Assembly (NCBI GenBank): GCA_965262745.1
Contig: OZ253558.1
Span: 2,015,618-2,079,617, forward strand
Direction: 5' to 3'
Length of the DNA: 64,000 nucleotides
Origin: Chloroflexota bacterium
Lineage (GTDB): Bacteria; Chloroflexota; UBA11872
Part shown: piece after piece, positions 34,479-58,444 of the stretch
How the letters are laid out: every line of letters begins with the position of its first letter
How positions within the stretch are numbered: the first letter of the stretch is position 1
Notes under the pieces: generated by a model
Told to the model about the DNA's origin: nothing
Databases searched by the model: none
What the model saw: the letters and a program-made list of their open reading frames with translations, nothing else
Translations under genes and position numbers: made by a program

Positions 34479-34479
34479 G

Positions 34480-42776: not shown

Positions 42777-43930
42777 GTGCAGTCCGCTACCTCGTTTCGA
42801 GCCGTGCGCGCCAAACGTGCGGCGAGTTCATGGTCGCTCAACAGGCGCTCGATGGCGGCCGCGAGCGCCGCATTATCGTCGGGCGGCACGAGAAGTGCGT
42901 TGTGCTCGTGGCGCAGCACTTCGCGCAGCGAAGGTAGATCGCTGGCCACGATGGGGACGCCGGCGGCCATGTACTCGAACAGCTTCAGCGGCGAGGTGTG
43001 CTCGCGCGCAATGATCGTAGCGCCGCTGAAGGGAATCACCGCCACGTCCGCCGCGGCGAGGTAGCGCCGGGCCTCGGCCGGTGAGCGGTGGCCCGTGACT
43101 CGCACGTTGCTCATGCCGCGCGCGCGATGGCGCACGCGGTCAAGGTCCGGCGGCACGCCCCCAACGATGGCGAATTGCACCGTGTCGGGAAGCTGGGCTG
43201 CGGCCGCGACGAGCGTGCCGACTCCCTTCCAGGGGTAGAGATGGCCGACATAGCAGACAAGCGGCGCATCCGGCGGGAGATCGAGCGCCCGGCGCGCGGC
43301 GGCCCGCGGCTCGAGGTCAAACGCGGCCGATGGGGCGGCGTCGTGCGCCACGAGCACGCGCTCGGGCGGCAAGCCGCGGCTGAGGTACCAGCGGCGCAGC
43401 GCCGCCGATATCACCACCACGCGATCCACGCGGCGCACCGCCCAAAGATGCAGCCGCTGCGACAACGACGAACGCGGCAGCGTGTGCCCCTCGAAGCACG
43501 TGCGGACGCCGCGGCGCCGGCGCAGGGTCGTGAGCGTCAGCGGAAACAGGTCACGGCTGTAAATGATGCGGCCCTTTAGACGGCGCGTCACCACGAGAGC
43601 GCTGAGCGTGAACGTCACCAGTTGGAGCAGGTGGGCCAGCAAGCGAATGGCGCCGCGGTTGCACACGGGCCAATCGATCGTGACGCGCTTGATCAGATCG
43701 AGGCAGGGCAGGCCGATGATCGCGAACGCAGCCGCGACGCCGTAATAGGCAAAGGGGTTGTCGACGTGCCGCATGGCGTCGGTGTTGTCGCGACGCGCAT
43801 GGAGCACGACCACTTCCAGGCGCTGGGCCGCGAAGGCCTCGGCCATGTGCATGATCTGCAGCGGGTGGGCTTTCTCACTGGGAATGCGCGCATTTGCCAG
43901 GAATATCAGACGCACGGAACCCGATCTCAA
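42719..43930 (-). CDS. GT4-family glycosyltransferase
   Basis: MRSGSVRLIFLANARIPSEKAHPLQIMHMAEAF N-terminus and C-terminal FEYMAAGVPIVASDLPSLREVL. Confidence 0.8.
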   Translation of the reverse strand: MRSGSVRLIFLANARIPSEKAHPLQIMHMAEAFAAQRLEVVVLHARRDNTDAMRHVDNPFAYYGVAAAFAIIGLPCLDLIKRVTIDWPVCNRGAIRLLAHLLQLVTFTLSALVVTRRLKGRIIYSRDLFPLTLTTLRRRRGVRTCFEGHTLPRSSLSQRLHLWAVRRVDRVVVISAALRRWYLSRGLPPERVLVAHDAAPSAAFDLEPRAAARRALDLPPDAPLVCYVGHLYPWKGVGTLVAAAAQLPDTVQFAIVGGVPPDLDRVRHRARGMSNVRVTGHRSPAEARRYLAAADVAVIPFSGATIIAREHTSPLKLFEYMAAGVPIVASDLPSLREVLRHEHNALLVPPDDNAALAAAIERLLSDHELAARLARTARNEVADCTWNRRAARIVDFLDLPQPA

Positions 43931-45708
43931 ATCTCGTAGTGGATTGTCGCCGAGACGCCGGCGCCGAGCGGTCCGAAATGCACCTGGTTGTCCCGCACGC
44001 GCCAGCTCGTCGGCGCGTCAACCTCGAACGACTCGACGCCCCGCGGGTAGCGATACGCGAGACCCGTGATCGGCTGTGCGACGTTCACGCCATCGGCGAC
44101 CAGTAGCCGGTCGTCGCGCCACTGGTATCGCCGCTCGGTGCGGAGGGCGGGATGCGGCTGGCCGTCCCGCCGCGCCAGCCATGAGGCAATCTTGACGCCG
44201 TCGCCCTTGGGCGTTACCCGGCCATCGAGTGCGTGGATCGAGGCGTATTGGGAGGCGGCCGCCCACGCGGGCGGGCCGAGGAAGCGATAGAGCATGCGGA
44301 GGGCATACCAGCGGCGGCCCGCGCGCCAATGCCTCCGCGCAACGCGCACGCGAAACCAGGCGGTCGCGTCGAGTGCGTCCGGCCGCGGCCGATCCGGGGG
44401 CGTGAGCAGCCACGTGCCTTCGGGCATCCAAGGCTCGCAGACTTGCGCCAAGGCATTGGCCCAGCCGCGTTCCGCGTTGCCGACGTAGACGAGCCCGCCT
44501 CCGCCCACCCGACCGCCCACGAGGCCGCTCGCCGGCCGCTTGCGGACGCGCAGCATGGCGCAGGCGCGCCGGGTCTGGATGCGGACCACGCCGGCATCGG
44601 CGCAGTGGATTGGCGGTGTCTGCGCGAGCGATGGGGGATTGGTCGGCAGGTCGTCCAGCTCGGCTGCTGCGTGGGCGCGGGCGAGCCAGGCGAGATCGGC
44701 GGTGTGAACCACGCGGCAAATGGAGGTCGGAGCGGTCGGGCAGGCGTCGACCAGCCCCTCGGGACCCACGGCCTGGGCCGAACGCGCCGCGACGGTCCCC
44801 GCCAGCCGGAGCGCCACCGGGCGCCCATCCGTCGCCAGGGCGTAGGCATCGTATGGCGCCGAGCCGACCTCGGTGTCTGCGTCCCAGCACCAGCGCTGGC
44901 CCTCGAGGGCCAGCGGCTTCACCCCGTCGGGCCGCAGGACATCGATGAGGAAGTCCACTCCTCGTTGCAGCTCGGCCGCGTGCGAATCCGGTTCGCCGAT
45001 GCGGGCCAGGGCGTAGCGGGCGAACGCGAGCATCCGGCCGTGCTCAGAGACCGCGAGGTCGGCGATGCCCTCATGTTCGCCGATGGCCGCTGCATCGGTG
45101 ACGTAGGGAAAGGAGCCGTCAGGACGCATCTCACCAAGCGCGCTGGCCACCGCATCCCGCACGGCGTCGGTCCAGCCGGGTTCTTGGAGGACCGCGGCCG
45201 CGCTGGCGAGCCCCATCGCGCCCCAGAGACGCTGGCTGATGACCGGCGTGCCGAGCACGTTCGGCGCCAAGTAGGTCTGGGCGCAGAGGCGGACCGCCTC
45301 CTCAATGCGCTCGCGATCGATTTCAGGCAGCCGATCGCCAGCCACCTTGAGCAGAGTGGCGAGCGCATCCACGCATTCGCCGCAATCGACGACGTGCGTC
45401 GAGACGTTCTGTGGGTGGTGCGGCCCGGGAAAGAACACCCAGGCCCCGCCCGCCGCGTCATCCTGGCTGAGGCGACCGGTGATGGCGCGCGCCACGCGTA
45501 GGGCGCGTCCGATGAAGCGGTCGTCCTCGGATTCGGAGGCCAGGGCGCAATTGAGCACGATGGCGCGCGCGGTCTTGCCGGTGTGGTCGACGCCATGCTC
45601 GGGGCAGCGGGCATAGCCGTCGCGCCCGAGGAGCCGCTCGAAGGCGTCGGAGGCCCGCTCGATGGCCCAGCGGGCACGGGGTGTGAGGCGCGCAGGCCCA
45701 CTAGCCAT
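43927..45708 (-). CDS. Hypothetical protein; possibly heparinase II/III-like (alpha/alpha-toroid plus beta-sandwich) polysaccharide-modifying enzyme
   Basis: 594 aa from MASGPARL (ATG 45708, 2 nt after the upstream TAG). Helix-rich N-terminal half and beta-rich C-terminal half. Family call is tentative and not motif-based. Confidence 0.4.
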   Translation of the reverse strand: MASGPARLTPRARWAIERASDAFERLLGRDGYARCPEHGVDHTGKTARAIVLNCALASESEDDRFIGRALRVARAITGRLSQDDAAGGAWVFFPGPHHPQNVSTHVVDCGECVDALATLLKVAGDRLPEIDRERIEEAVRLCAQTYLAPNVLGTPVISQRLWGAMGLASAAAVLQEPGWTDAVRDAVASALGEMRPDGSFPYVTDAAAIGEHEGIADLAVSEHGRMLAFARYALARIGEPDSHAAELQRGVDFLIDVLRPDGVKPLALEGQRWCWDADTEVGSAPYDAYALATDGRPVALRLAGTVAARSAQAVGPEGLVDACPTAPTSICRVVHTADLAWLARAHAAAELDDLPTNPPSLAQTPPIHCADAGVVRIQTRRACAMLRVRKRPASGLVGGRVGGGGLVYVGNAERGWANALAQVCEPWMPEGTWLLTPPDRPRPDALDATAWFRVRVARRHWRAGRRWYALRMLYRFLGPPAWAAASQYASIHALDGRVTPKGDGVKIASWLARRDGQPHPALRTERRYQWRDDRLLVADGVNVAQPITGLAYRYPRGVESFEVDAPTSWRVRDNQVHFGPLGAGVSATIHYEI

Positions 45709-46846
45709 GCTCGCCTCCCGTTGCGGCGGACGCGGTCTGTGGGAACGGCGGCTCCCGACGCTCGCGCAAGGCCGTGAACACCTCAACGAGCCGACCCGCC
45801 AGGCGGCTCGCGCCATGGCCGTCGACGACCGTTTGCCGGAGTTGTTCGATGGCGGCAGTGCGCAAGCTTGGATGGAGCGCGAGTGCCCGCCGCAGGCCAT
45901 CCGTCAAGGCCGCCGTCGACGATTGGACCAGGAAGTCGCCGGCGAACGCGCCAAGCGTCGCGCGATAGGCGACGTTGTTGGTAACGAGCAGCGTGCCGGC
46001 GGCGAGGGCTTCCAATCCGGTCTTATCGAGCGAAGTACCGCTGCGCCAGGCGACGAAAGCATCGAGGCCGGCGTAGAACTCCGGCATGTTCGTGCTGGGC
46101 AGGCCGCCCAGAAAGGTGACGTGCTCTGTGAGCTCCGCCTGACGCACGTGCTCGTGAATACCGGCGAGGTAGGCGTGATCCGAGGGATAGAAGGGCTCGC
46201 CGGCGACGCGCAGCTCGACGGGCACGCCGTCGTCGCGAAGCTGCGCGACGGCCTCGATCACCGTGGACAGCCCCTTCAGCGGCGTGATGCGCCCGGCGAC
46301 GCCGATGACCGGCCGCACCGGCGGCGCCGACCGGATGGGCGCGGCCGCGAGCCGGGCCGTGTCGATGCCCTGGCCTAGGATGAACGCTCCCGGCGATCGT
46401 AGCGGGTAGCTCTCCGGAGCCGAGGTGATGGTCGCGCTGGCCAGCCTGACACCGACGCGCAGCGCTCGCGTGCGGCCGTGGCTGGCGTACCAGAGCACGA
46501 GGGGGATCCGCCGGGCGATGCACGCGGGGGCGGCGGCGATGGCATAGGCCGGGACCATGTGCGCCAGCACGCCGTCCACGCGACCTCCGCCGATCAACTG
46601 AAGGCACCGGCCAAGCAGCAGCGACCTTCGGGACGCGCGCCCGCGACCGCGCTCCTTGCCCAGCCCGTGCACGGCGACGTTGCGCGGCAGATCCACGGTG
46701 CCCGTGGCGGTGGCAATGACGTGCAACTGCTCGACCAGCGGCGCAAGCTCTTGCGCCCAAAGATGGGCGAATCCCAGGATGGAACTGTCGGTCGCAAGTT
46801 CCTGGGTGATCATGAGCAGCCGCAGTCCTCGTCCGCCCTCGCTCAC
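45701..46846 (-). CDS. GT4-family glycosyltransferase
   Basis: RLLMITQELATDSSILGFAHLW N-terminus and TGLEALAAGTLLVTNNVA C-terminal motif. Confidence 0.75.
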   Translation of the reverse strand: MSEGGRGLRLLMITQELATDSSILGFAHLWAQELAPLVEQLHVIATATGTVDLPRNVAVHGLGKERGRGRASRRSLLLGRCLQLIGGGRVDGVLAHMVPAYAIAAAPACIARRIPLVLWYASHGRTRALRVGVRLASATITSAPESYPLRSPGAFILGQGIDTARLAAAPIRSAPPVRPVIGVAGRITPLKGLSTVIEAVAQLRDDGVPVELRVAGEPFYPSDHAYLAGIHEHVRQAELTEHVTFLGGLPSTNMPEFYAGLDAFVAWRSGTSLDKTGLEALAAGTLLVTNNVAYRATLGAFAGDFLVQSSTAALTDGLRRALALHPSLRTAAIEQLRQTVVDGHGASRLAGRLVEVFTALRERREPPFPQTASAATGGEHG

Positions 46847-47973
46847 GGCAACGACTCCGCCGCCAGATCGCGATAGGCCCTGGCATAGGCGCTGAGAATC
46901 TTGTCACGGGTGAAGGGCGCGGTTGCCCGGCGCGCAGCCGCGCCGGCGTCGGCCAGGGCGCCGCGATCGGCCCGCACCCGCGCGACCAGGCCCGCGCCGG
47001 CCGAAACGTCCCAGGGCAGGAGCCAGCCATTGACGCCGTGGTCGATGATCTCGGGCATCAGGCCCACCGGCGTACTGAACACCGGTATGCCACAGGCCAT
47101 GGCCTCCAAGCACACGCGGGGACCTCCCTCACTGCGCGACGGGCACACCAAGGCATCCATCTGCCGATAGAGGGCCGCCAGATCGTCGGGGCCGTCGACC
47201 CAAGGGATGCGGTTGACCCGGTCCGCAAGCCCCGCGGCCGATAGTCGGCGCTGCAACGAGCCGGCTTCGGGCCCGTCGCCCACCACTAGGAACCGTGCGT
47301 CAGGCGCGGCAGCCGCGACGGCGGCAAAGATCTTGATTAGATAGTCAAGGCCCTTGTTGGCGACCAAGCGCCCCACAAATCCCAGCGCGTATGACCGGGG
47401 CGCGTCGCTCGGATGGAACACCGCTCGATCGACGTGCGCCGACGGCAGGACCAGGACTTTCTCTCGCGGCACGTCCCACCGCTCCAGCAAGTCGGGCACC
47501 TGCCGGCGATTGACAACCCGGATGGCGCGGGCGCGCTTGGCGGCGAACGTCACGTAGGCCCGGTAGCCGAGCTTGGCCGCCGGCTCCCACCACTGCGCGC
47601 GGCGCGGATGGGCCGGGATGTGATGGATTTCGCTGACGTACGGCACGTCCAACCGCCGGCTGAGGCGCGCGGCGGCGATGCCGTTCGAGAAGATGCCGTA
47701 GTCATGGCTCACGATGAGGTGGTAGCGCCGCTCGGCAGCCAGGGCACCCGCTCGGCGGATGAGCCAGCGCGCGTGCCAGAGTCGGCCGCCCGGCGACGGG
47801 TGGACGTGCACGCCACGATGGAGCGTACGCGGCGAGGCGTTGGCGATGCCAGGCGTCAGCACGTCAATCTGGGCGAACTCCTTCGATAGGCCCTCAAGTG
47901 TGTAGTAGAACGGGCCTTGCCGCCCCGCCGCTACGTCGCGATCGCCGCTGAGCATCAGCAGGCTGGGTTTCAT
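46843..47973 (-). CDS. GT4-family glycosyltransferase
   Basis: MKPSLLMLSGDRDVAAGRQGPFYYTLEGL N-terminus, CLEAMACGIPVFSTPVGLMPEII. ATGA-type overlaps on both sides. Confidence 0.8.
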   Translation of the reverse strand: MKPSLLMLSGDRDVAAGRQGPFYYTLEGLSKEFAQIDVLTPGIANASPRTLHRGVHVHPSPGGRLWHARWLIRRAGALAAERRYHLIVSHDYGIFSNGIAAARLSRRLDVPYVSEIHHIPAHPRRAQWWEPAAKLGYRAYVTFAAKRARAIRVVNRRQVPDLLERWDVPREKVLVLPSAHVDRAVFHPSDAPRSYALGFVGRLVANKGLDYLIKIFAAVAAAAPDARFLVVGDGPEAGSLQRRLSAAGLADRVNRIPWVDGPDDLAALYRQMDALVCPSRSEGGPRVCLEAMACGIPVFSTPVGLMPEIIDHGVNGWLLPWDVSAGAGLVARVRADRGALADAGAAARRATAPFTRDKILSAYARAYRDLAAESLP

Positions 47974-49142
47974 GCGGCCGCGCGGGCGGCTCCCGGCCGG
48001 CGATCAATGGCATCGTGCAGCACGTCGAGCGTCTGATCGACGAGGCGGTCCCAGCGAAAGTGCTCGAGGCCCGTCTGCGCGGCGCCGGCCAGGCGTGCCC
48101 CGTAGGCGGGATCGTTCAGCACGCGATTCACGGCTTGCACGAAGGCGTCATCGTCGCCGAACGGCACCAGCAGCGCGGAGTGCCCGTGGCGCAGAATTTC
48201 GCGGTTACCGCCAATATCGGTCGTCACGATGGGCGTGCCGACATGGCGGGCCTCCACCAGCGTGTGCGAGAGACCCTCGTACTGGGTGTTGAGCACGCAC
48301 ACCTGGGACGCTCGCAAGTATGTCGCCACACGATCGTGCGGCACATCGCCCGTGAAGACCACGCGGTCGGCGACCCCAACCTCCTGCGCCAGGCGCTCCA
48401 ACCGGGGGAGTTCCGGTCCGCCGCCGACGACGAGCAGCGCGGCGGCGTTTTCGAACCGCGGCACCATTCGCACGAGCGCGTCGACGTGTTTCCAGGGGTA
48501 GAGCCGAGAGACGTTGCAGACCACGGGGCCGCGCAGGCCGAGGGACTGCCGTACGGCCTCGGGCTCCTCGTCCGGACGCGGCGTGCTGGTCAGCGCGTTT
48601 TGGATCACCTGCGTCTGTCCGGCGTCGACGCCCCAGCCCGCGACCAGCGATCCCACGTAGGCGCTGGGCACGACAACGACGCTGGCGAGCCGGCAGTAGA
48701 AGCGCTGGATGGCGCGGAACATCCGAGTCTTTACGCCGTGCGCGGCGTTTTGGAACGGCTCGATTCCCAGGGTCGTCAGTTCGCGGCGAATGGCCGATTC
48801 CCAGGCCCAGTCACCTACCACCTTGAGCACGCGCGGACGGCCGGCCAGCAGCGCTCCGATGCTCGCGGGGAGCTCGATGCCGTTGATGTACACGACATCG
48901 GAGCGCAGGGCCGCGCGCCAGGTGTGCCACATGACCCGCAGATAGCGCAGCGGAACGGGCATGCTCCACGACACCCGCACGAGGGGGTAGGGCACCTTGA
49001 CCACGCCCTCGGGATCGTCGGTGCCGGCAACGACGCGCACCGCGTGACCACGCTGATGCAGCGCCTCGGCCAGGTGATACACGTGCGTCGCCGGGCCGCC
49101 GACGGCGGGCGGAAAGATGTTGGACACCAGCGTCAGACGCAT
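47970..49142 (-). CDS. GT4-family glycosyltransferase
   Basis: MRLTLVSNIFPPAVGGPATHVYHLAEALHQRGHAVRVV N-terminus, LVEARHVGTPIVTTDIGGNREIL. Confidence 0.8.
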   Translation of the reverse strand: MRLTLVSNIFPPAVGGPATHVYHLAEALHQRGHAVRVVAGTDDPEGVVKVPYPLVRVSWSMPVPLRYLRVMWHTWRAALRSDVVYINGIELPASIGALLAGRPRVLKVVGDWAWESAIRRELTTLGIEPFQNAAHGVKTRMFRAIQRFYCRLASVVVVPSAYVGSLVAGWGVDAGQTQVIQNALTSTPRPDEEPEAVRQSLGLRGPVVCNVSRLYPWKHVDALVRMVPRFENAAALLVVGGGPELPRLERLAQEVGVADRVVFTGDVPHDRVATYLRASQVCVLNTQYEGLSHTLVEARHVGTPIVTTDIGGNREILRHGHSALLVPFGDDDAFVQAVNRVLNDPAYGARLAGAAQTGLEHFRWDRLVDQTLDVLHDAIDRRPGAARAAA

Positions 49143-49214
49143 GTTCGCGACGCTAGCACCGACCGCTGAGCGCCACAACCAGACCGGTCCAACGACTCCC
49201 GCCCCCGCGAGGAT

Positions 49215-50303
49215 TTATCCAGCGTGGCCGTTCGTGCGACCGTTCTGCAGCACCGGCAGCGGGTCAGAGGTAGCGACCGACCGCGCACCCGCAAAGGCCC
49301 GCCACAGCGGCGTGTCCTCCTGCCACTTGGCGTCGCATCCGGCGCACAGCGGATAGTCCGCCAGCTGGCCTTGGGTGTGCGCCTCGCGAATGGCCCGATA
49401 GGCGTCGCTGTTCCAGACATCTTGGATTGATTGCGTGCGGAGGTCGCCCATGATCTGGTCTTCGGCGAAGTCGGCACAGCACGACGGCACGCGGCCGTCC
49501 CAATAGACCGCCATGGATTTCCACAGCCAGTTGCAGGGGTAGTAGACCGGACCGTGCGGGCGCGCCGTGTAGAAATCGGAGTCCGTAAGCGTGCCCGCCC
49601 ACCCGTGGGCCCAGAAGGTGTCCCACTCGTCGACGGGCAAGCCGGCAAATCGATCCTTGAAGTCCGCGGGGACCACCGGGCGCGCGCCGACGCCAAACGA
49701 CTTCTCCCAGAGCTGAATCACTTGCATGACGACGTAGGGCTTCGGGCCAGCGAGGCGCTTGCGCGCCTCGAGAAACCGCAAGACGCGCTCAAGCACTCGG
49801 TCGAAGTTGGCGCCCTTGCGCATCTGCTCGTAAGTCTCGGGTTCGCCGGAGTCGAAGCTAATGGTCACTTTGGAGGGCCGCGCCTCCAACAGCTTGGCGA
49901 TGGCGTCGTCACGCCACAGTGTGGCGTTGGTGTTGATGTGCGCCGCGATCCCGGCACGCTCGCATATCTCGATCATCTCGTAGATGCCCTGGTGCATGAG
50001 CGACTCGCCGCGGAAGAACAGATTGATCTCCCGGGTGAAGTGGCGGGCCTCGTCGATGATCTTGTTGAACAGGTCCATCTCCATGAACCCGTTGGTGGCG
50101 TTGGCCCCGACGCTCTGCGGGCACATGGGGCAGCGCAGATTGCAGAAGCTGGTGGGTTCCACATGCATCTTGATCGGCCCGTAGGGCAACTCGCTGCTGC
50201 CACGCATCCAGTGGTAGGCGAAGCGCGCCAAGCGAGGGTGCGCCACCGCCTTGTGCCGACGGAAGTTGAGCACCAGGTCCTTGGCTTGCGTAACCGAGTT
50301 CAC
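49215..50303 (-). CDS. Radical SAM enzyme with C-terminal SPASM/twitch-like Cys-rich domain
   Basis: CNLRCPMCPQ (CxxxCxxC radical-SAM cluster motif). A C-terminal auxiliary-cluster Cys constellation runs from YYPCNWLW through PSCCADF to LCAGCD. 362 aa. Confidence 0.8.
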   Translation of the reverse strand: MNSVTQAKDLVLNFRRHKAVAHPRLARFAYHWMRGSSELPYGPIKMHVEPTSFCNLRCPMCPQSVGANATNGFMEMDLFNKIIDEARHFTREINLFFRGESLMHQGIYEMIEICERAGIAAHINTNATLWRDDAIAKLLEARPSKVTISFDSGEPETYEQMRKGANFDRVLERVLRFLEARKRLAGPKPYVVMQVIQLWEKSFGVGARPVVPADFKDRFAGLPVDEWDTFWAHGWAGTLTDSDFYTARPHGPVYYPCNWLWKSMAVYWDGRVPSCCADFAEDQIMGDLRTQSIQDVWNSDAYRAIREAHTQGQLADYPLCAGCDAKWQEDTPLWRAFAGARSVATSDPLPVLQNGRTNGHAG

Positions 50304-50524
50304 GGAGTGGCCTGGGCCGAATCCTGCGGCGAGATTGCCTCATCCCAGAGCATGTTGGGGATGCCGTCCTCAACCGTGTAGGCGTACCCACAGACGGTGC
50401 AGACGAGCGCAGTCCCGGCGATACGCAAAACCCCATCGTCGCGCTCATGCGCGTCGTTCACGCAGCGCAGAATGGCGAGAAAGTCGGCCGGGATCAGATC
50501 AGAATCTGGGGAATCGGACATCAA
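50300..50524 (-). CDS. Trm112-like (UPF0434/YcaR-like) zinc-ribbon mini-protein with degenerate first CxxC
   Basis: 74-aa ORF. LLAILRCVNDAHE....ALVCTVCGYAYTVEDGIPNMLWDEA matches the Trm112 family consensus (LL.IL.CP.C...L.......L.C..C...Y.I.DGIP.ML.DEA), but the first CPxC is RCVND. Its stop overlaps the radical-SAM start (4-nt overlap). Confidence 0.65.
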   Translation of the reverse strand: MMSDSPDSDLIPADFLAILRCVNDAHERDDGVLRIAGTALVCTVCGYAYTVEDGIPNMLWDEAISPQDSAQATP

Positions 50525-50541
50525 TATGCCTCAGTTCGACG

Positions 50542-52818
50542 CTAGAGCATGAAATGGAGCGTGTCAAAAGTGATCAGGACGGCCCCGTAGACGCCGACGA
50601 TGGACATGCGCCACCAGGCGGCATGACGCCCGGCCGGCCAGAGCCGGTGCGCGACCGCGGCGAGCGCCCCGACGGAGATCACTTGCAGCCCGATGAGGAC
50701 CGCGCCGGTCAACGCCAGGACGACCGGATAGGCCAGGTAGTACTCGATCAACGTCATGGACCAGAAGTCGAGACCCAGGCCGTTTTCGGGGCGTTCCGGA
50801 CGCACCTCGATTCCGAAGCGGGACCACGGCGAGCGCGCTAGGGCGTCCTCTAGCAGGTCTGTCCTATCCGGCGCCAGCAGGTTCGTCGCATCGGCGCGCA
50901 GGAGCCAGGCATGCGCTAGTAGGGGAGAGAACTGGTGCGCATAGAGCACGGCGACGAAGTCGCCCTCCGGCTGGATGGACGACCAGGGCTGGTACGCCGC
51001 TCCGCCGTACACGGCGCCGTCCTCGGGGAGCTGCTGGACCACCTGCTGCTGATAGAGATCGAGATACGAGCCAAAGTCCTTGCTCACGCCCATGACCTGG
51101 ACCCCCACGCTGGCCAGGAGCACGACGGCGAATGCCGCCCGCAGTAATGCGCGGCGGCCTTTCCCGGCCAGCCACTCGACCACCGGCGCGGCCATGATGA
51201 CGAGGAACGGCAGCGCCGGCATGAGATAGCGCGGACCCCAGGCATTGCCGCCGTACCAGACTTCTTTCTTGCTGTAGAGCAGCACGTATCCGATGGGGAT
51301 GGCGATGAAGATGAATGCCCGCCATCCGTGGCGCCGGATGAACCAGGGAATCGCGGGAATGGCCACGAAGAGCACGGGGTTGTACCAGAGCAAGCCCTTG
51401 CCCCAGCTTGAAATCAGCCCATGAACCCCAAGCTCGATCGGAAGGCCCAGCCACCCGCGGCTGATTCCCCCCCACAGCTCCCGGACGTAAAGCAGTTGCA
51501 CGTCAAATACGAGCGCGGCCACCACCAGGCCCGCAGGGACCACGGCGATGATGGGCGCGGCGAAGGCGAGCGTCGGCGCGAGGCCCTGACGCGCTACCAC
51601 GCGCCAGGTGCGTCCGGACTTGTGGCTCAGGAATATCGCCGCCACAAGCAGCGGCATGACGATGACGGTGACGTACTTGGTGGCGGCCGCGGCGAGCGCA
51701 ACCATCCCCGCGAGCACCAGATAGCGGCGCATCGGCGTCCGCTGATAGATCAAGAGCAACCACACGCTCGTGAGCACGAGCGCGGTCACCAGCGGTTCCG
51801 CGAAGTCGAAAACGGCGTAAGGCCAGGCCATGGTGGCGAGTGCGTACACGAGACCGATGGCCAGGGCGATGCCCAAGCCATAGTCCAGCCGCCGAACGAT
51901 GCGATACACGACGACCGTGCCGAAGGCGGTGATCAGCGCGTTGACGAGCGGCACCCAAATGCGGCGGAAGAAGTCGACGGTCTGGCGCTCGGACCACAAC
52001 CGGCCAATACCGGGCCCGTCTACCCAGGTCCCGTCAACGCGCCGAGCCGCGACGCCATCAACGTAAAGATTGCCGTCCGGCACCAGGTATTCCAGCCGCG
52101 CCGACGCAAGGTCGACGGGCTCGGCAAAGTCCCAGTCCGCCAGGAAGTAGTACGCCCGCGCGTTGCCGATCTGACGCCCGGCGGGCGGCGGGCGCTCATG
52201 CTGGATCATGGCCCGGACGTCGCCGCGGTCATAGGCCCACTCCGCCGTCTCCACTCCGACGCGCAGGGGTCGCACGACAGCGTCCCCACCGGCAGCCGTA
52301 ACGACGAGTCGCGCCACCTCGAGACCCTGGGGCAGAGCCGCGCTGAGACCCGTGTGGGTGAGCAGCGCAAGCCGGTCATAGCGTCCCGGCTTCAGCCCTA
52401 GGTCCAGCACCTCGGTGGAGTTGGGCTGTGGCATGCCGCCGAGCGGCGCGTAGTTGACGAGCAGAATCTCATGCTCACCGATTGGGATCCGGTCGCGCTG
52501 CGGCGCGAGATGCGCGGACGATTCGGCAGCAGCAACCACCGGCATCAGCGCCAGGGGCAAGCCCACGCCCCAGCGCGAGAAGTTGTGGCCGTGCCGGCGC
52601 AGGTATTTGTGGTCGGGATCGACGACGACGCTCTTGGCCATCTCGAAGGCGAACGTTCCATCGGCGCTGTAGCCGACGCCATTGCGACTCACGCCGGCCG
52701 TGAGCAGATAGACGGTGACAGCGAGGAGAAACAGCGCGAGCGCCGGACGGCGCACGGCCCACGCCGGCATGCGCAGCCGCATCAGACACGCACCGGATCG
52801 AAGCGCTGTAGCGGCCAC
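50542..52818 (-). CDS. Large polytopic membrane protein, putative GT-C-like glycosyltransferase/polymerase, with ~200-aa extracytoplasmic insert after TM1
   Basis: 758-aa ORF with N-terminal TM (ALALFLLAVTVYLL), a soluble beta-rich segment (aa ~60-260), then ≥10 TM helices. Confidence 0.5.
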   Translation of the reverse strand: MAATALRSGACLMRLRMPAWAVRRPALALFLLAVTVYLLTAGVSRNGVGYSADGTFAFEMAKSVVVDPDHKYLRRHGHNFSRWGVGLPLALMPVVAAAESSAHLAPQRDRIPIGEHEILLVNYAPLGGMPQPNSTEVLDLGLKPGRYDRLALLTHTGLSAALPQGLEVARLVVTAAGGDAVVRPLRVGVETAEWAYDRGDVRAMIQHERPPPAGRQIGNARAYYFLADWDFAEPVDLASARLEYLVPDGNLYVDGVAARRVDGTWVDGPGIGRLWSERQTVDFFRRIWVPLVNALITAFGTVVVYRIVRRLDYGLGIALAIGLVYALATMAWPYAVFDFAEPLVTALVLTSVWLLLIYQRTPMRRYLVLAGMVALAAAATKYVTVIVMPLLVAAIFLSHKSGRTWRVVARQGLAPTLAFAAPIIAVVPAGLVVAALVFDVQLLYVRELWGGISRGWLGLPIELGVHGLISSWGKGLLWYNPVLFVAIPAIPWFIRRHGWRAFIFIAIPIGYVLLYSKKEVWYGGNAWGPRYLMPALPFLVIMAAPVVEWLAGKGRRALLRAAFAVVLLASVGVQVMGVSKDFGSYLDLYQQQVVQQLPEDGAVYGGAAYQPWSSIQPEGDFVAVLYAHQFSPLLAHAWLLRADATNLLAPDRTDLLEDALARSPWSRFGIEVRPERPENGLGLDFWSMTLIEYYLAYPVVLALTGAVLIGLQVISVGALAAVAHRLWPAGRHAAWWRMSIVGVYGAVLITFDTLHFML

Positions 52819-52821
52819 GGT

Positions 52822-54420
52822 CTAGGCGGCGGGTGCAGCGGGAAACCCGAGCTCATCAACGAGTGCATTGAGACGCTGAGCAAAGGCTGCGACGTTGAAC
52901 CGCTGGCTCGCGGCCTGCGCGGCCTGGGACATGCGGTGGCGCAGGTCGGCATCGTGCACGAGCGCCAAGGTGTGGGCGCGCAGCTCACCGGTCGTCGACC
53001 AGCCGAAGCCGTCGACGCCGTGGGTGATGATCTCGGGCAACCCGCCTTGGTCAAGCACCACCGGCACCGCGCCGCTCGCCATGGCCTCGACCACGGTGAT
53101 GCCGAAGTGCTCGAATCTGACCGGATTGCGCGACTCGCGCTCGCCATGGCCGGCGGCGTGCCAATAGATGGGGGCTTCTCCGTATAGCCGTTGGAGCTCA
53201 GCGAAGGGCGCGTCCACGTGGAACTCGATGGGGTGTCCGGCAGCCCGACGCTTCAGGTCGCGGGTGTATTCGACGTCAATCTCGCGTTCGCTCTGCTGGC
53301 CCACCAGATGCAGTGTCCAGCCCTCGAGCCCCTCGCGCTGCATGCGGATGAACTGGTCGATCATCACCCGGTGCTTCTTCTCGTGCGTGCCGCGGAAGAA
53401 CCGGCCCACGCCCAGAATCGACTTGCCACGGCGACCAGGCGCCGCCCACGAGGTGTCGACCGGCGGGAACAGCAACGGACCATCCCGGTCCCAGTAGTAG
53501 CGCATCCAGCGTCGGCTGAACTCGGAGATGGGCGCGATGAGGTCGTAAGCCTCCAAAAAGTCGAGCGAGCCATAGGTTGGCAGGCCCTCCAGCCGGATGC
53601 CCGCTTCGGGAAGAAGACGGCGGAACAAGAGCTCATACATGAGCCGGCGCGGGTTGCGCATGCGTACATCGGTGACGGCCAACCCAACCTCGCGGTTGTC
53701 GGCTTCCCCGAGAGTCTCGGCGGGGTTGTAGACGGGCGACTCGAGCGTGAGTTCGAGCGGGCCGTTCGTCCCGGGCGGTCGACTTACGCGCACGGGCCAG
53801 CGCTCGAATTCCCCGGGACGCGGCTCGAAGATGCGCTCGGCAATCAGGTCGCCATCGAGAAGGCACCGGACGGGCAGCGGCACATCGCTGCGGAAGTTTC
53901 CGGCGATGATCTCGACGACCCCCGACGTGCGCCCCGGCGGAAGCGGAACGCCCACGACAGCGCGATCCGTGGTGTACCTGAACCAGCCCCGGCCCAGCGG
54001 ATGCACGTCGTAGAAGCCATCGAGCCATTCCGGCAAGAGAAACTGCCGAATCAGGATTTCCCCGACCTTGCGGCGCAGACGCGCGCGCCAGCCACGATCG
54101 ATGGGCGACGGGAAGAGCACCAGCATCATGCTGCGGTGAGCCGCCGACGGCTGGGAAGTCATGAACGACGCGTTCACGAAGAGATCGAACTGCGAGGTGA
54201 ACTGGGCGAAGCGGTTCGGCGGCAAGGCCGGGATGACCTCGATCTCGACCTGGGACAGGTCGATGTTGAGAGCGGCTTCCAAATCTTCGCGCGCAATGCC
54301 GCGATGGGTGATGAGGCGCGTGTCGTCGAAGCGTTGGGCCAACACGGCGGCGGCCATGGCCGCGTGGCGCTCGCCGCCGCCGCGCTGGTGCAGCCAGCGG
54401 TTGTAGACGGCAGCCTTCAT
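52822..54420 (-). CDS. GT4/GT1-family glycosyltransferase with N-terminal extension
   Basis: C-terminal FGITVVEAMASGAVPVVLDQGGLPEII and HLVGQQSEREIDVEY motifs. 532 aa. Confidence 0.75.
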   Translation of the reverse strand: MKAAVYNRWLHQRGGGERHAAMAAAVLAQRFDDTRLITHRGIAREDLEAALNIDLSQVEIEVIPALPPNRFAQFTSQFDLFVNASFMTSQPSAAHRSMMLVLFPSPIDRGWRARLRRKVGEILIRQFLLPEWLDGFYDVHPLGRGWFRYTTDRAVVGVPLPPGRTSGVVEIIAGNFRSDVPLPVRCLLDGDLIAERIFEPRPGEFERWPVRVSRPPGTNGPLELTLESPVYNPAETLGEADNREVGLAVTDVRMRNPRRLMYELLFRRLLPEAGIRLEGLPTYGSLDFLEAYDLIAPISEFSRRWMRYYWDRDGPLLFPPVDTSWAAPGRRGKSILGVGRFFRGTHEKKHRVMIDQFIRMQREGLEGWTLHLVGQQSEREIDVEYTRDLKRRAAGHPIEFHVDAPFAELQRLYGEAPIYWHAAGHGERESRNPVRFEHFGITVVEAMASGAVPVVLDQGGLPEIITHGVDGFGWSTTGELRAHTLALVHDADLRHRMSQAAQAASQRFNVAAFAQRLNALVDELGFPAAPAA

Positions 54421-55871
54421 TCGGGCTCGAAGAAGGGCTGCAACTCACGCGCGTCCAAGGGCCCCAGGCGTTGTTCAATGCGTCGCAGCCGCAGCGTGGC
54501 CGGCATGGCCCGCAGCGCAGCGCCAAGCGCCGATGCCCGCGCCCGGGCTCGCGCGAGCGCCCGCGCGTCGCCCACGGCCAGACCGCGGCGCATCTCACGC
54601 CCGCCGTGGATCACCGCGAGTGCCGCGTGGTGGCCGGCAAGTTTCCCGGGCGCGTTCTTGGCCAGCATGCGCAGCTTGCCGAATTCGACGTTGCGGATGA
54701 ACGACGGGGACCACTCGCCGCTGAACGCCGCGTGGGCGTGGCGAACAACCGACGCCGGCTCGTACCAAAAGCGCCAGCCGCGGCGGCGGGCGCGCCAGGC
54801 AAGGTCCGCGTCTTCGTAGTACATGAAGATGCCCGGATCGAGGAAGTCAAGCGATTCGAGCATCGAGCGGCGGAAGAGCGCCGCCCCGCCCTTGACGGCG
54901 AACACTTCGCGCGGCTCGCTAAAGTCCGGGCCATCCCACGCCTGCCAGACGTTGCCGTGGGTCACGAAGGTTCCGCGATCGCGCATGGAGCCGTCGGGGA
55001 GCGGCTTGATGCCCGCATTCTCGATGACGGGCCGGGCGAGCTCGCGGACAGCATCCTCAGGGATATCAAGCTCGTGACGAGTGCGATCCGGCGTGACGGG
55101 CAGTGTCGCGAGTTCCCGTCCACCGACGGTGACGGAGAGCTCGACGTCGTCGCGGCCGGGGCCGGCGGCGACGTCGAGCGCCACCCGGGCCTTGCCGTCG
55201 ACGGCGGGAACGGCCAGCGTGGCCGTGGCGGCGGTCCAGCGAAACATCTCGCCTTGCTGGTCGAGCTCCGCGCCATAGGCGCCGCGGTTGATGACGACCG
55301 GCGCTAGTTCAGCCCCGTCGGCATAGAGCCGGACGGCCGGCGCTGCTTCAGCCCCGACGGCATAGAGCCGCACGCCAAGCTCGCGCGCGTCGCCGCCGCC
55401 GGGCACGAAGGTCGGCGCGCGCAGGTCCACGGCAATACGATCATGCAGATACAGAATCTTTGCTGCGGCGCCCCCGGCCACGGGGTCCGCTTGCATGCGT
55501 TCCACCAGTGGCCGCAGCCATCCGGGATCGACCTCCGTGTCGGGATTGAGAAGCGCGACGAGCGGGGCGGTCGCATCCCGCATGGCCAGGTTGTTGCCAC
55601 GCGAGAAGCCGAGGTTTGCCCCAGCCTCCATGAGCGCGACTTCCGGAAAGTCACGGCCCAGGTTGCGTAGGGATCCATCCGTGGAGGCGTTGTCGACGAC
55701 GATGACTTCAAAGCTTGGATAGTCCGTGGCAAGCACGGCGCTGAGACACCGATCAATGAACGCCCCGGGGTTGTAGGTGAGGACGACGATACAGACGCGC
55801 GGCAGACTGCGAGACCGAGGTGCTCGCCGAGCCGGCGGACGCGGCGCCTCGGCCGCGATGGCGTCTGTCAT
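54417..55871 (-). CDS. GT2-family glycosyltransferase (GT-A fold) with internal tandem duplication and C-terminal extension
   Basis: VCIVVLTYNPGAFIDRCLSAVLATDYPSFEVIVVDNASTDGS plus DxD-type and QxxRW-like regions (PDTEV...YYEDADLAWRARRRGW). Confidence 0.8.
   Translation of the reverse strand: MTDAIAAEAPRPPARRAPRSRSLPRVCIVVLTYNPGAFIDRCLSAVLATDYPSFEVIVVDNASTDGSLRNLGRDFPEVALMEAGANLGFSRGNNLAMRDATAPLVALLNPDTEVDPGWLRPLVERMQADPVAGGAAAKILYLHDRIAVDLRAPTFVPGGGDARELGVRLYAVGAEAAPAVRLYADGAELAPVVINRGAYGAELDQQGEMFRWTAATATLAVPAVDGKARVALDVAAGPGRDDVELSVTVGGRELATLPVTPDRTRHELDIPEDAVRELARPVIENAGIKPLPDGSMRDRGTFVTHGNVWQAWDGPDFSEPREVFAVKGGAALFRRSMLESLDFLDPGIFMYYEDADLAWRARRRGWRFWYEPASVVRHAHAAFSGEWSPSFIRNVEFGKLRMLAKNAPGKLAGHHAALAVIHGGREMRRGLAVGDARALARARARASALGAALRAMPATLRLRRIEQRLGPLDARELQPFFEPE
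55301..55378. repeat. 39-bp x2 in-frame tandem direct repeat inside the GT2 gene (duplicates 13 aa: VRLYAVGAEAAPA / VRLYADGAELAPV)
   Basis: gcgctagttcagccccgtcggcatagagccggacggccg followed by gcgctgcttcagccccgacggcatagagccgcacgccaa, ~85% identical head-to-tail. Confidence 0.7.
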
Positions 55872-57583
55872 TCCACGCTGATCGAGCGCACGGCCAGCCC
55901 GAGGACGCGAGTGTCATCGTCGATGCCCGCGGCCGCGGGGACGAACGGCGCGTCAACGGTGATCTCGAGCTGCAACGTCGTGGGCTCGGTCACCGGATCG
56001 AGCGGCACGATCACGTCCTCGAAATCCATTTGCCGCACGGTAAACGTCGCCACGTGCCGCCCGTTGAGACGAACCTGGGCGCTTGCGCCATCGATGTCGT
56101 GGAACGGGCGGCACACCGACAGCCGCACCGCGCCCTGCCCCACGGATTGGGTGACATAGGCCACGGCGCGATCAGTCGTCCAGCGGAGTCGGGGCGGCCA
56201 CTCCTCCGGGGGATGCCAGCCTTCGCCAAGCCAGTCGTCATCTCCCTCACCAAGGCGGAGCTCGGCGGGCGGGTTACGCCAGATCTGGCGCGGCGGCTCG
56301 CTGATCATATCCGGCTGCGCCACCGGAGCATCGCTGCGCTCGAGCGGCGGATGGTCTCGCGAGAGGCCGGCGCGCCATTGGGCCGGGAGCACGACCGCAC
56401 CCCGCTGGAAGGCCGTGAACTTGCCCACGAAGAGCGTCAGCGCATTGTCCCAACAGTGGTAGGGCTGGTGGCGCTTCTGCTCCGGCCATGCACTGAGGGA
56501 GACGTTGTAGGTACCGACGCCGAGTGGCAGCGGCCCGAGGCGGCAGGTGACGACGGTGCGGCCGGGCGCCACCTCCAGCGGGCCGATGGTGGCTTCCGTG
56601 GTCGACTCGGCGACCAGCAGGCCATCGCTGCGATGCAGGGCGCACCCAACGATCACGTCGGTCAAGTGCGACTTGGCTTCCAGCTCGGCCGCCACGGTGA
56701 CGGTGTCACCCGGAAGCACGCTGTACTGCTCGGGTCCATCGGCACTTTCCCGCAAGACGGCCGCCCGAATTCGCAGGTCGGTGGGGCCACGTGCCGCGCG
56801 CTGCGCGGTTGCCACATCGCCGGGCGTCAAGCCGCCCTGCATGTGCTGGACATAGTCTTGAATGACCTTGCGCGGGTCGCCTGCCAGGCGCACCTTGCCG
56901 CGGTCCAGCCAGACCACACGGTCGCAGAACCGTCGCACCTGAATGGGGTCGTGTGAGACGAGCACCATCGTGCGGCCACGGCGCTTGACGCGAGCCAGGG
57001 CTGCGTAGCACTTGGCCGCGAAGCTCGCATCGCCTACGGCCAGGACCTCGTCAATGAGCAGGATCTCGGGGTCCACGTGGACGGCGATGGCAAACCCCAG
57101 CCGCATGAACATGCCGGATGAGTAGTGCTTGACCGGCGTATCGATAAATTTCTCAAGCTCGGCAAAGGCGACGATGTCGTCGTACATCGCTTGAATCGAG
57201 CGCCGGTCGAGGCCGAGAAACGATCCGTTGAGGAAGACGTTCTCGCGGCCGGTGAGGTCCGGATGCATGCCAGCGCCAAGCTCGAGGAGTCCAAACACGC
57301 GGCCGCGGGCGGTGACCTGGCCTTCGGTAGCCTGGATCGTCCCGGCGAGCAACTTGAGAATGGTGCTCTTGCCCGACCCGTTTGGGCCGATGATGCCGAG
57401 CGTCTCACCGGGCGCGACGGACAGATTCACGCCATCGAGCGCCCAGAACTCCTCGTTTTCCATCGGCCGCCGCCCGAGCATAGCCAGGGCCATCCCTTGA
57501 AACGTGCGGGCCGCTTCGTGGCGAATGACAAACCGCTTGCGCACGTCGCGAAGCTCAATGGCGGGTGGCGAGTGGTCAGGCAC
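55868..57583 (-). CDS. ABC transporter ATP-binding protein, Wzt/TagH-like polysaccharide exporter ATPase with ~300-aa C-terminal (carbohydrate-binding-type) extension
   Basis: Walker A GIIGPNGSGKST, ABC signature LSGGM-like and Walker B ILLIDE. The C-terminal half after the NBD is beta-rich, like Wzt C-terminal domains. Confidence 0.85.
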   Translation of the reverse strand: MPDHSPPAIELRDVRKRFVIRHEAARTFQGMALAMLGRRPMENEEFWALDGVNLSVAPGETLGIIGPNGSGKSTILKLLAGTIQATEGQVTARGRVFGLLELGAGMHPDLTGRENVFLNGSFLGLDRRSIQAMYDDIVAFAELEKFIDTPVKHYSSGMFMRLGFAIAVHVDPEILLIDEVLAVGDASFAAKCYAALARVKRRGRTMVLVSHDPIQVRRFCDRVVWLDRGKVRLAGDPRKVIQDYVQHMQGGLTPGDVATAQRAARGPTDLRIRAAVLRESADGPEQYSVLPGDTVTVAAELEAKSHLTDVIVGCALHRSDGLLVAESTTEATIGPLEVAPGRTVVTCRLGPLPLGVGTYNVSLSAWPEQKRHQPYHCWDNALTLFVGKFTAFQRGAVVLPAQWRAGLSRDHPPLERSDAPVAQPDMISEPPRQIWRNPPAELRLGEGDDDWLGEGWHPPEEWPPRLRWTTDRAVAYVTQSVGQGAVRLSVCRPFHDIDGASAQVRLNGRHVATFTVRQMDFEDVIVPLDPVTEPTTLQLEITVDAPFVPAAAGIDDDTRVLGLAVRSISVE

Positions 57584-57589
57584 GTCGCG

Positions 57590-58444
57590 CTACAGCTCCT
57601 CGGCGAAGCGATGGGCATAGCGCCGAAAGATCCACCAACCGAAGCCGAGCGCGACCACCGCGACGACGATGGTGGCGATGGTGTGGCGGATGGGGAAGGA
57701 CCCAAACATGATTGCGTAGCGGTAGTCGGTTGTCAGCGTGGCCATGGGATTGAGCATGAAGACCCAGCGGTGCACATCCAGCCCGAGGAAGGTCACGTTT
57801 GGCACGACCGAAATAGAATAGAACACGGGTGTGAGGAAAAACCAGGCCAGCATGCCAACCTCCACCAAATGCTCCGTATCGCGGAAAAAAACATTGGCCA
57901 TCGCGAGGATGAGACTGAGACCCATCACTAACGTAAGCTGCAATAGCATAATCAGCGGTACCATCAGCATCGCGCGAGTATTACCGACACCAAAAATGAG
58001 ACCGATTACCCAGAATATAAAAAATGCCAGCAGAAAGTTTACAAAGCTCGCCAGCACTGCGCTCATCGGTAGCAATTCACGAGGAAAGTAAACCTTCTTG
58101 ATAAGTTGCGCGTTACTCGTGATGCTCCGCATCGCCGTGGTGAGCGCCTGCTGGGTGAACAACCATGGAACGAGCGCCGCCATGAGAAACAAGGGATACA
58201 GTTGGATATCGTCGTATTGCGCCAAGACCTGAAACACGAGCGTGAACACTGCCATCATGAGCAACGGATTGAGCAGCGACCACGCGAAGCCAAAAATGGA
58301 CCCGCGATAGCGCACCTTGAGGTCGCGAACCACCAGGTTGCGCAACAGGTCGGTGTAGTCCGCGATCTCGCGGACGGCGCCCCACACGCGGCGCAGCATC
58401 AATGGCGAAACCGAGGCGGCGGCACGTGCCATGCGGTGCTCCAT
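57590..58444 (-). CDS. ABC-2 type transporter permease, Wzm/TagG-like
   Basis: 284-aa ORF with 6 TM helices and an N-terminal VVRDLKVRYRGSIFGFAWSLLNPLLMM ABC-2 signature. Confidence 0.8.
   Translation of the reverse strand: MEHRMARAAASVSPLMLRRVWGAVREIADYTDLLRNLVVRDLKVRYRGSIFGFAWSLLNPLLMMAVFTLVFQVLAQYDDIQLYPLFLMAALVPWLFTQQALTTAMRSITSNAQLIKKVYFPRELLPMSAVLASFVNFLLAFFIFWVIGLIFGVGNTRAMLMVPLIMLLQLTLVMGLSLILAMANVFFRDTEHLVEVGMLAWFFLTPVFYSISVVPNVTFLGLDVHRWVFMLNPMATLTTDYRYAIMFGSFPIRHTIATIVVAVVALGFGWWIFRRYAHRFAEEL

Follow-up and report, generated by a model that had tools for sequence, protein, structure and literature searches.

A Trm112-family mini-protein paired with a BtrN-type twitch radical-SAM enzyme in a Chloroflexota surface-glycan operon

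The overlapping genes T and R

The locus described here lies in a 64,000-nucleotide stretch of DNA from a Chloroflexota bacterium (assembly GCA_965262745.1, contig OZ253558.1), hereafter the window, and consists of two overlapping genes on its minus strand: T, encoding a mini-protein related to Trm112/UPF0434, and R, encoding a radical S-adenosylmethionine (SAM) enzyme with a twitch-type C-terminal domain. Both are real, conserved genes, and comparison of gene neighbourhoods indicates that they form a module of two genes conserved in an uncultured lineage of Chloroflexota. Each gene encodes a protein of a known kind, T a Trm112-family accessory protein and R a twitch radical-SAM enzyme of BtrN type. 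The reading we favour, with a probability of roughly 0.45, is that R would modify a sugar of the glycan exported by Wzm/Wzt, with T as its non-catalytic binding partner. The features of the locus are collected in Table 1.

Table 1. Position of the gene pair, its motifs and its surroundings in the window.
Feature	Position	Strand	Remarks
T, mini-protein gene	50300..50521	minus	73 amino acids (aa) from ATG; in-frame TTG at 50524
R, radical-SAM gene	49215..50303	minus	GTG start, 362 aa
GTGA overlap	50300..50303	minus	R GTG start / T TGA stop; read from the sequence
GAGG, Shine-Dalgarno-like motif	50529..50532	minus	7 nt upstream of the T ATG; read from the sequence
CX3CX2C motif of R (C54, C58, C61)	50121..50144	minus	ligates the SAM-binding [4Fe-4S] cluster
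Twitch region of R (C257-x12-G270-x4-C275 ... C320-x2-C323)	49335..49535	minus	four Cys, single auxiliary cluster
GT4a glycosyltransferase	47970..49178	minus	immediately downstream of R
758-aa polytopic membrane protein	50542..52818	minus	immediately upstream of T
Enclosing operon, ~18 kb	40164..58444	minus	Wzm, Wzt (Wzt_C), GT2, GT4, GT-C-like, T, R, GT4 x3, 657-aa protein, GT4, YfhO-like

The pair of open reading frames (ORFs) with a 4-nt overlap, as recorded by the first-pass annotation, is present on the minus strand, with one correction to the start of T. In the ORF list and the raw sequence the TTG gives a small ORF of 74 aa (50300..50524), yet the ATG at 50521 is the likelier start, since the GAGG sits 7 nt upstream of it. 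All database homologs of T (37/37) begin with MS, MT or MA at this ATG position and are 73-77 aa long. The G+C content of the window is 67%, and long chance ORFs are therefore common. When T is compared with four relatives whose R is 93-94% identical to that of the window (loci L001-L004), the third codon position accounts for 27-32 of 47-49 base differences, and the core of T carries 18-20 synonymous codon changes and 5-6 nonsynonymous ones; from this third-position bias and synonymous excess T is judged to be a real coding gene under purifying selection. A G/ATGA start/stop overlap joins T and R in 17 of the 25 loci having T (see below).

A twitch enzyme and its Trm112-family neighbour

R matches the Pfam families PF04055 Radical_SAM (67 bits, cut-off 29.5) and PF13186 SPASM (59.5 bits), both over cut-off, whereas no curated NCBIfam model comes near its own (best 104 vs 380 bits). 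Of the three cysteines of the CX3CX2C motif, C54 is invariant in the alignments, and conservation reaches 90% or more for C58 and C61. The C-terminal domain holds C257, C275, C320 and C323 as its sole conserved cysteines in alignments of 17 and 59 homologs, and their pattern, CX12GX4C ... CX2C, corresponds to the first half of the seven-Cys SPASM motif (CX9-15GX4C-gap-CX2CX5CX3C-gap-C; twitch definitions in PMC6231123), the CX5CX3C...C half being absent. Because four of the seven SPASM cysteines are conserved, R is assigned to the one-auxiliary-cluster twitch enzymes and not to the full SPASM ones; of the SPASM/twitch-type domain that had been proposed for it, the twitch part stands and the SPASM label does not.

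BtrN is the closest solved relative of R by sequence as well as by fold. It is the best sequence match in a phmmer search of the PDB (E 3e-10, aligned over the twitch region), with C275, C320 and C323 falling on BtrN cysteines in the HMMER alignment. The AlphaFold2 (AF2) model of R, obtained with a predicted local distance difference test score (pLDDT) of 89.7 and a predicted template modelling score (pTM) of 0.90, gives BtrN (4m7t) as the top Foldseek match, with E 3e-14 and a template modelling score (TM) of 0.74 normalised on BtrN, followed in the ranking by SuiB, DesII, BlsE, SkfB and the anaerobic sulfatase-maturing enzyme anSME, the last in 14th place with a TM of ~0.5. The 45-residue N-terminal extension of R is modelled as three short helices. 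No RRE/PqqD domain was found in R (Pfam, E up to 0.01, which returned Radical_SAM and SPASM only). An identity as anSME, raised by the first-pass annotation as a way in which its proposal could fail, was rejected on the four C-terminal cysteines and on the NCBIfam search, where the best 25 matches include no anSME model and all score far under their cut-offs. R also matches NF049973, 'Rv1681 family radical SAM', weakly and far below cut-off (E 6e-9); the locus tag of Rv1684, named as the UPF0434/Trm112 homolog of M. tuberculosis in a 2026 preprint, is three from that of Rv1681, so this may be a second place where Trm112-like and radical-SAM genes are neighbours.

Concerning T, the copy in the window scores below threshold when taken alone, with 18.4 bits for PF03966 (E 2e-3, cut-off 22 bits) and 30.9 bits for NCBIfam Trm112_arch (cut-off 77). 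Its syntenic orthologs, however, pass the PF03966 cut-off (L008 37.8, L012 27.9, L090 32.7 and L089 36.6 bits; for L083 the match is precomputed), and a profile of the syntenic family matches SCO3027 (2kpi, E 8e-19) and 2jny (E 2e-14) in the PDB, as well as the bacterial UPF0434 nuclear magnetic resonance structures 2hf1, 2pk7, 2jr6 and 2js4, archaeal Trm112 from methyltransferase complexes (6zxw_H, E 4e-8; 6f5z_C, E 1e-6) and, more weakly, yeast and human Trm112 (E ~6e-3). As the orthologs pass the Pfam cut-off and the family profile matches solved members, T is assigned to the Trm112/UPF0434 family; the match noted earlier is thus upheld through orthologs and profile and not through the window copy by itself. 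Residues I17, L18, C20, L39, Y48, I54, P55, M57 and L58 are kept in all syntenic copies, and these positions correspond to the generic Trm112 core and C-terminal strand. No second Trm112-like ORF was found in the 64-kb window.

The metal site is far less constant than the core. The window subfamily of T does not have the canonical four-Cys zinc site, and the first-pass annotation, which saw a first CxxC degenerated to RCVND, was correct about the replacement but not about decay: the knuckle is remodelled to C20-x4-H25 ... C41-x2-C44, its first Cys being followed by an insertion of 5 residues, and 30 close homologs keep C20, H25, C41 and C44 without exception, which makes a Cys3His zinc site possible. 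Residues 20-30 of this subfamily form an invariant RCVN(D)xHxRDDG loop, where the canonical sequence is CPxC(x)G. Elsewhere the ligand set is four Cys (L015, L083, L090) or C/H/C (L008-L011), and the copies from L012-L014 keep one Cys only, in addition to a 27-residue helical insertion; loss of zinc ligands is documented within the Trm112 family (PMC6144793). The copies from L083, L089 and L090 look ancestral, generic 4-Cys UPF0434 much like SCO3027. Length varies from 57 to 83 aa across orthologs, and the N- and C-terminal tails are variable, with no conserved Cys, Tyr or Trp-type target. The AF2 monomer of T has a helix at 12-17 and strands at 32-35, 38-41 and 47-51, and its mean pLDDT of 55 is too low for a fold search.

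Gene neighbourhoods of the pair

Neighbourhoods were compared over 29 clade loci, in which R is at least 47% identical to that of the window. Nineteen came from scanning GTDB species, each represented by one genome (R 48-94% identical), and the other ten from a metagenome scan and three contig look-ups; the 19 all belong to Chloroflexota metagenome-assembled genomes, the closest being sponge-associated bins. Searched with a T hidden Markov model (HMM), 25 of the 29 loci have T adjoining R, so that T homologs are indeed found next to radical-SAM genes elsewhere, as the first-pass annotation expected of a functional pair.

This adjacency extends over seven gene contexts. The window, L001-L007 and L088 share the order GT-C-T-R-GT4a, L008-L011 have Wzt-GT2-GT4-methyltransferase-GT-C-T-R followed by heme genes, and L083 has GT2-GT4-methyltransferase-GT-C-T-R-GT4. 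The order GT-C-YfhO-T-R-GT4a is found in L090 and probably in L089 and L092 (the sequence of L095, of the same context, ends after R), Uma2-T-R-GT4a in L015, L016 and L018, and IMDH-T-R-GT4a, with 119 nt between T and R, in L017. Finally, in L012-L014 the pair is inverted, reading CAAX protease-R-T with 45 nt between R and T, in a 17-kb locus that holds no glycosyltransferase. R is the sole gene adjoining T in all seven contexts. The most constant neighbour of R after T is GT4a. Downstream sequence is readable in 26 clade loci, and in 16 of them, three T-less ones included, GT4a directly follows R; in L081 a GT4 gene lies one gene further from R. The heme genes after R in L008-L011 encode a siroheme decarboxylase-like AhbA/B fusion and a chlorite-dismutase-family (ChdC/HemQ-like) protein (L008 9408-11221).

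The R family as a whole is much wider: out of 1.84 billion library representatives, 563 belong to it at E <=1e-30, and the T-linked clade accounts for one to three of these 563 clusters at 50% identity. A homolog 41% identical to R lies among genes for GT4, GT2, WbsX, an RfbT-like methyltransferase, a nucleotidyltransferase and an epimerase. Two natural fusions join the enzyme to glycosyltransferases: P0230, a fusion of PMT_2 (GT-C), Radical_SAM and SPASM present in two independent assemblies (L085 3136-5376, L086 2956-5196), has an O-antigen-like neighbourhood with DegT, methyltransferases, GT2, Wzy_C and AsnB, and P0219, a fusion of GT4, Radical_SAM and SPASM (L087 571-2766), lies near GH10, Wza-like and Wzx-like genes. 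The operon setting, these fusions, the homologs in glycan clusters and the similarity to BtrN, DesII and BlsE support a sugar or glycan as the substrate of R, on which it would act at the membrane glycosylation machinery. The immediate neighbours of homologs at 28-38% identity (96 counted) include other radical-SAM/B12 enzymes, methyltransferases, KsgA and a few GT4s, and were not used as strong functional evidence because of this heterogeneity.

Some distant members of the family have Trm112-like domains nearby. A 768-aa Parcubacteria protein with an N-terminal Trm112-like domain followed by class I methyltransferase, B12-binding and radical-SAM domains is encoded directly upstream of a distant R homolog (L045 5668-7971), and two metagenome loci encode shorter Trm112-methyltransferase proteins at a distance of 1.4-2.6 kb from R homologs (L117 1631-2554, L123 477-1385). 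Long homologs of R (394-457 aa) owe their extra length to low-complexity C-terminal tails only. P0129 (612 aa), considered as a fusion of radical-SAM and GT4, was rejected, since an Arg/Gly/Pro-rich stretch replaces its twitch domain; a frameshift or an assembly error across R and GT4a is its most likely origin.

Judged by its sequence, the window operon encodes an ABC-transporter-dependent (Wzm/Wzt) surface-glycan pathway; among its genes there is neither a class I methyltransferase nor an aminotransferase or a nucleotide-sugar enzyme. The pair had been placed between a GT4 and a GT-C gene, which holds on the GT4 side; on the other side, the 758-aa protein is probably a GT-C-type glycosyltransferase, the signals being weak (DUF2079, 6e-3; NF047440 putative glycosyltransferase, 8e-8; a local resemblance to the PMT_2 part of P0230). 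L001-L011, L083 and L088 carry it in syntenic position. The 657-aa protein (43927-45900) has no Pfam or NCBIfam match and keeps its operon position in L001-L007 (46-73% identity); its called start overlaps GT4c by 200 nt and is probably too far upstream. Beyond the operon, a second polysaccharide set at 33372-39035 encodes Polysacc_synt_3 flippase-like, GT4 and Glyco_trans_1_2 proteins. The operon methyltransferase of L008-L011 and L083 (L008 4134-5489) has ~185 C-terminal residues that resemble the C-terminal region of the window Wzt (55871-56422), at 28% identity over 196 aa (E 6e-8), a likeness that recalls the pairing of chain-terminating methyltransferase and Wzt carbohydrate-binding module in ABC-dependent O-antigen systems. 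No homolog of the catalytic domain of the L008 methyltransferase was found in the window.

T as a candidate subunit of R

The function we favour for the pair can be set out as follows. R would be cytoplasmic, and its CX3CX2C cluster would cleave SAM to the 5'-deoxyadenosyl radical, which would take a hydrogen off a sugar carbon, the sugar being either nucleotide-activated or already on a lipid-linked oligosaccharide. The auxiliary [4Fe-4S] cluster would accept an electron, giving a BtrN-style oxidation to a keto sugar; alternatively, the radical may be re-quenched to give an epimer. The C-terminal 'DGIPxML' strand of T, together with its hydrophobic face, would add to an exposed beta edge of R and stabilise or activate the enzyme, a binding mode likened to that of Trm112 on methyltransferases. 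The physical T-R complex and its geometry are what we infer, as are the reaction and its substrate.

Trm112 binds methyltransferases through a main-chain beta-zipper of its C-terminal strand, which buries a hydrophobic surface on both partners, and these enzymes are often insoluble without it (PMC5372719). The binding follows local structure more than residue identity (PMC5372719), which makes an alpha/beta client other than a methyltransferase plausible. A structural or activating subunit is the role best supported for T because the elements used for binding are kept, the metal site drifts, and T tracks R through seven rearrangements; since the metal ligands vary while the core and the C-terminal strand stay invariant, this role would be structural and not redox. 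The first-pass annotation had offered two possibilities, and the one in which a Trm112-like protein partners a radical-SAM sugar enzyme is favoured by the adjacency in 25/29 loci, the likeness to BtrN and the glycosyltransferase links, although a class I methyltransferase could also be the client. The further claim that in this Chloroflexota clade T is a dedicated, obligate subunit of a glycan-tailoring twitch radical-SAM enzyme is held more tentatively still.

Several points weigh against a partnership of T and R. The Trm112 clients known from experiment or predicted are all class I methyltransferases (PMC6144793, PMC5372719; preprint 10.64898/2026.07.15.738315), a class I methyltransferase gene lies two genes from T in two contexts (L008-L011; L083), and a Trm112 domain is fused to a methyltransferase near an R homolog in three distant loci (L045, L117, L123). 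Prediction of function by similarity is unreliable within the SPASM/twitch enzymes (PMC6231123). R can also exist without an adjacent T, given four clade loci (L037 from Thermoflexus, L081, L093 and L094) and ~140 loci with R homologs at most 41% identical, which have no free-standing T. Of the four, L037, L093 and L094 have the order IMDH-R-GT4a, with the sequence of L093 ending 194 nt after R, where a downstream T is possible, and the absence of T looks like lineage-specific loss or relocation. The 29 loci are phylogenetically non-independent and may stand for perhaps seven independent arrangements, and no T-R fusion occurs among the R homologs listed, the best 150 representatives included. 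Last, the translational coupling once proposed for the pair is reduced to the GTGA overlap itself, which is real but not special to T and R, as 4-nt start/stop overlaps occur throughout the operon, at 6 of its 12 junctions. Those are Wzt/GT2, GT2/GT4, T/R, GT4a/GT4b, GT4b/GT4c and unk657/GT4.

The alternative that survives best, which we nonetheless consider unlikely, takes T as a conventional Trm112 activator of a class I SAM methyltransferase, in the operon or elsewhere, or as a general hub, so that its adjacency to R would reflect a shared pathway or co-regulation. The known client range of the family, the order methyltransferase-GT-C-T-R in L008-L011 and L083, the Trm112-methyltransferase fusions near distant R homologs and the generic, SCO3027-like T of L083, L089 and L090 all speak for it. 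On the other hand, no class I methyltransferase is present in the window operon or in the examined flanks of five of the seven contexts, and where one is present a GT-C gene stands between it and T, whereas T overlaps or abuts R. In L012-L014, moreover, R and T moved together, inverted, to a locus free of glycosyltransferases and methyltransferases, and a genome-wide hub would have no reason to track one non-client gene through seven rearrangements.

We regard as improbable that T is an adaptor which docks R on the membrane glycosylation machinery, that is, on the GT-C-like protein and/or GT4a, in place of a covalent fusion. The natural PMT_2 and GT4 fusions with R-type enzymes would fit such a role, as would the order GT-C-T-R-GT4a of the window, L001-L007, L083 and L088. 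The pair is however kept without a glycosyltransferase neighbour in L012-L014 and without GT-C in L015-L018, while R-GT4a is kept in the T-less L037 and L094, and T is very small for bridging two proteins.

That T is itself the substrate of R, as a RiPP-like precursor (RiPP, a peptide made by the ribosome and modified after translation) or as a small protein carrying a radical-SAM modification, was the second possibility of the first-pass annotation, and it now appears very improbable. A small ORF followed by a radical-SAM gene with a SPASM-family domain does resemble RiPP clusters, the pair stands alone in L012-L014, and some twitch enzymes are peptide maturases (SkfB; PMC6231123). Yet conservation in T is confined to the Trm112 fold core, with no conserved target residue in its variable tails, and its architecture varies in length and, in one lineage, by the helical insertion. 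R, for its part, has neither RRE/PqqD nor more than 4/7 SPASM cysteines, and a protease or exporter dedicated to a peptide product is missing. Among the R homologs that lack T are members of glycan clusters and fusions with glycosyltransferases. A role for T as a rubredoxin-like or Dph3/Kti11-like electron donor that reduces the clusters of R was rejected as hardly credible, for although T is a small Cys-knuckle protein beside an Fe-S enzyme and its window subfamily keeps C20, H25, C41 and C44, the ligands differ among syntenic orthologs in a family where Zn loss is known.

As for what would follow, the function of bacterial Trm112/UPF0434 was described in 2018 as wholly unknown to the field, and later proposals have all been methyltransferase clients. 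In the open-access literature no paper links Trm112 to a radical-SAM partner, the two being mentioned together only as separate subjects of tRNA-modification papers; the same literature has nothing on Trm112 with LpxK, and nothing relevant on twitch domains with polysaccharide or on UPF0434/YcaR. If T is a subunit of R, the client range of Trm112 would widen from methyl transfer to radical SAM chemistry, with R as the first client other than a methyltransferase and as the first radical-SAM carbohydrate enzyme to need a small protein activator. A BtrN-like clade within a family of several hundred 50%-identity clusters would be flagged as glycan-tailoring enzymes, and co-expression of the mini-protein would be advisable when R-type enzymes are produced. 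If T serves a methyltransferase instead, the finding shrinks to an ordinary operon neighbour.

Compared with known systems, T shares with Trm112/UPF0434 (COG2835, PF03966; SCO3027 2kpi, Cgl1405 2jny, H. volcanii Trm112 6f5z, and the yeast and human proteins) the zinc-knuckle fold family as judged by sequence, a set of motifs (L-x-I-L-x-C ... Y-P-I-x-D-G-I-P-x-M-L), a length of 57-83 aa and the variable loss of zinc ligands, and it is likewise a stand-alone small gene that would act with a SAM-using enzyme. It differs in that known and predicted clients have the class I Rossmann fold, whereas the constant neighbour of T is a radical-SAM partial-barrel enzyme, and in that the window subfamily has a C-x4-H first knuckle with a 5-residue insertion and scores under the Pfam cut-off. 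Another comparison is with mycobacterial ML1347/Rv1684 (UPF0434) with MtrP and MenG, a predicted case (bioRxiv 10.64898/2026.07.15.738315) in which a bacterial Trm112-like protein is also tied computationally to a cell-envelope enzyme; there the partner is a class I methyltransferase and the genes lie apart, whereas the candidate partner of T is a radical-SAM enzyme and the genes overlap.

R shares with BtrN (2-deoxy-scyllo-inosamine dehydrogenase of the butirosin pathway, 4m7t), the founding twitch enzyme, the CX3CX2C motif, the four-Cys twitch domain and a setting in a carbohydrate or cyclitol pathway. Identity is only ~20%, and R is ~110 residues longer, with an N-terminal extension of 45 residues that is basic and rich in aromatics and with a conserved insert (GLPVDEWD..WAHGWAG) that precedes the twitch domain; R belongs to a surface-glycan operon without an aminotransferase and not to an aminoglycoside cluster, and BtrN is without a known small partner. 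The RiPP radical-SAM/SPASM maturases (AlbA/SboA, PqqE/PqqA, MftC/MftA, SuiB/SuiA, SkfB/SkfA) have in common with the pair a small ORF directly before a SPASM-family radical-SAM gene, but R is without RRE and the seven-Cys motif, and T has no leader and core, belongs to a folded-domain family and is found in a glycosyltransferase operon. Dph3/Kti11, which works with Dph1-Dph2 or Elp3, serves a SAM-cleaving Fe-S enzyme as a small Cys-knuckle accessory. Dph3 binds iron, carries electrons and has an essential Cys4 site, whereas T belongs to a different fold family and its ligands are not conserved.

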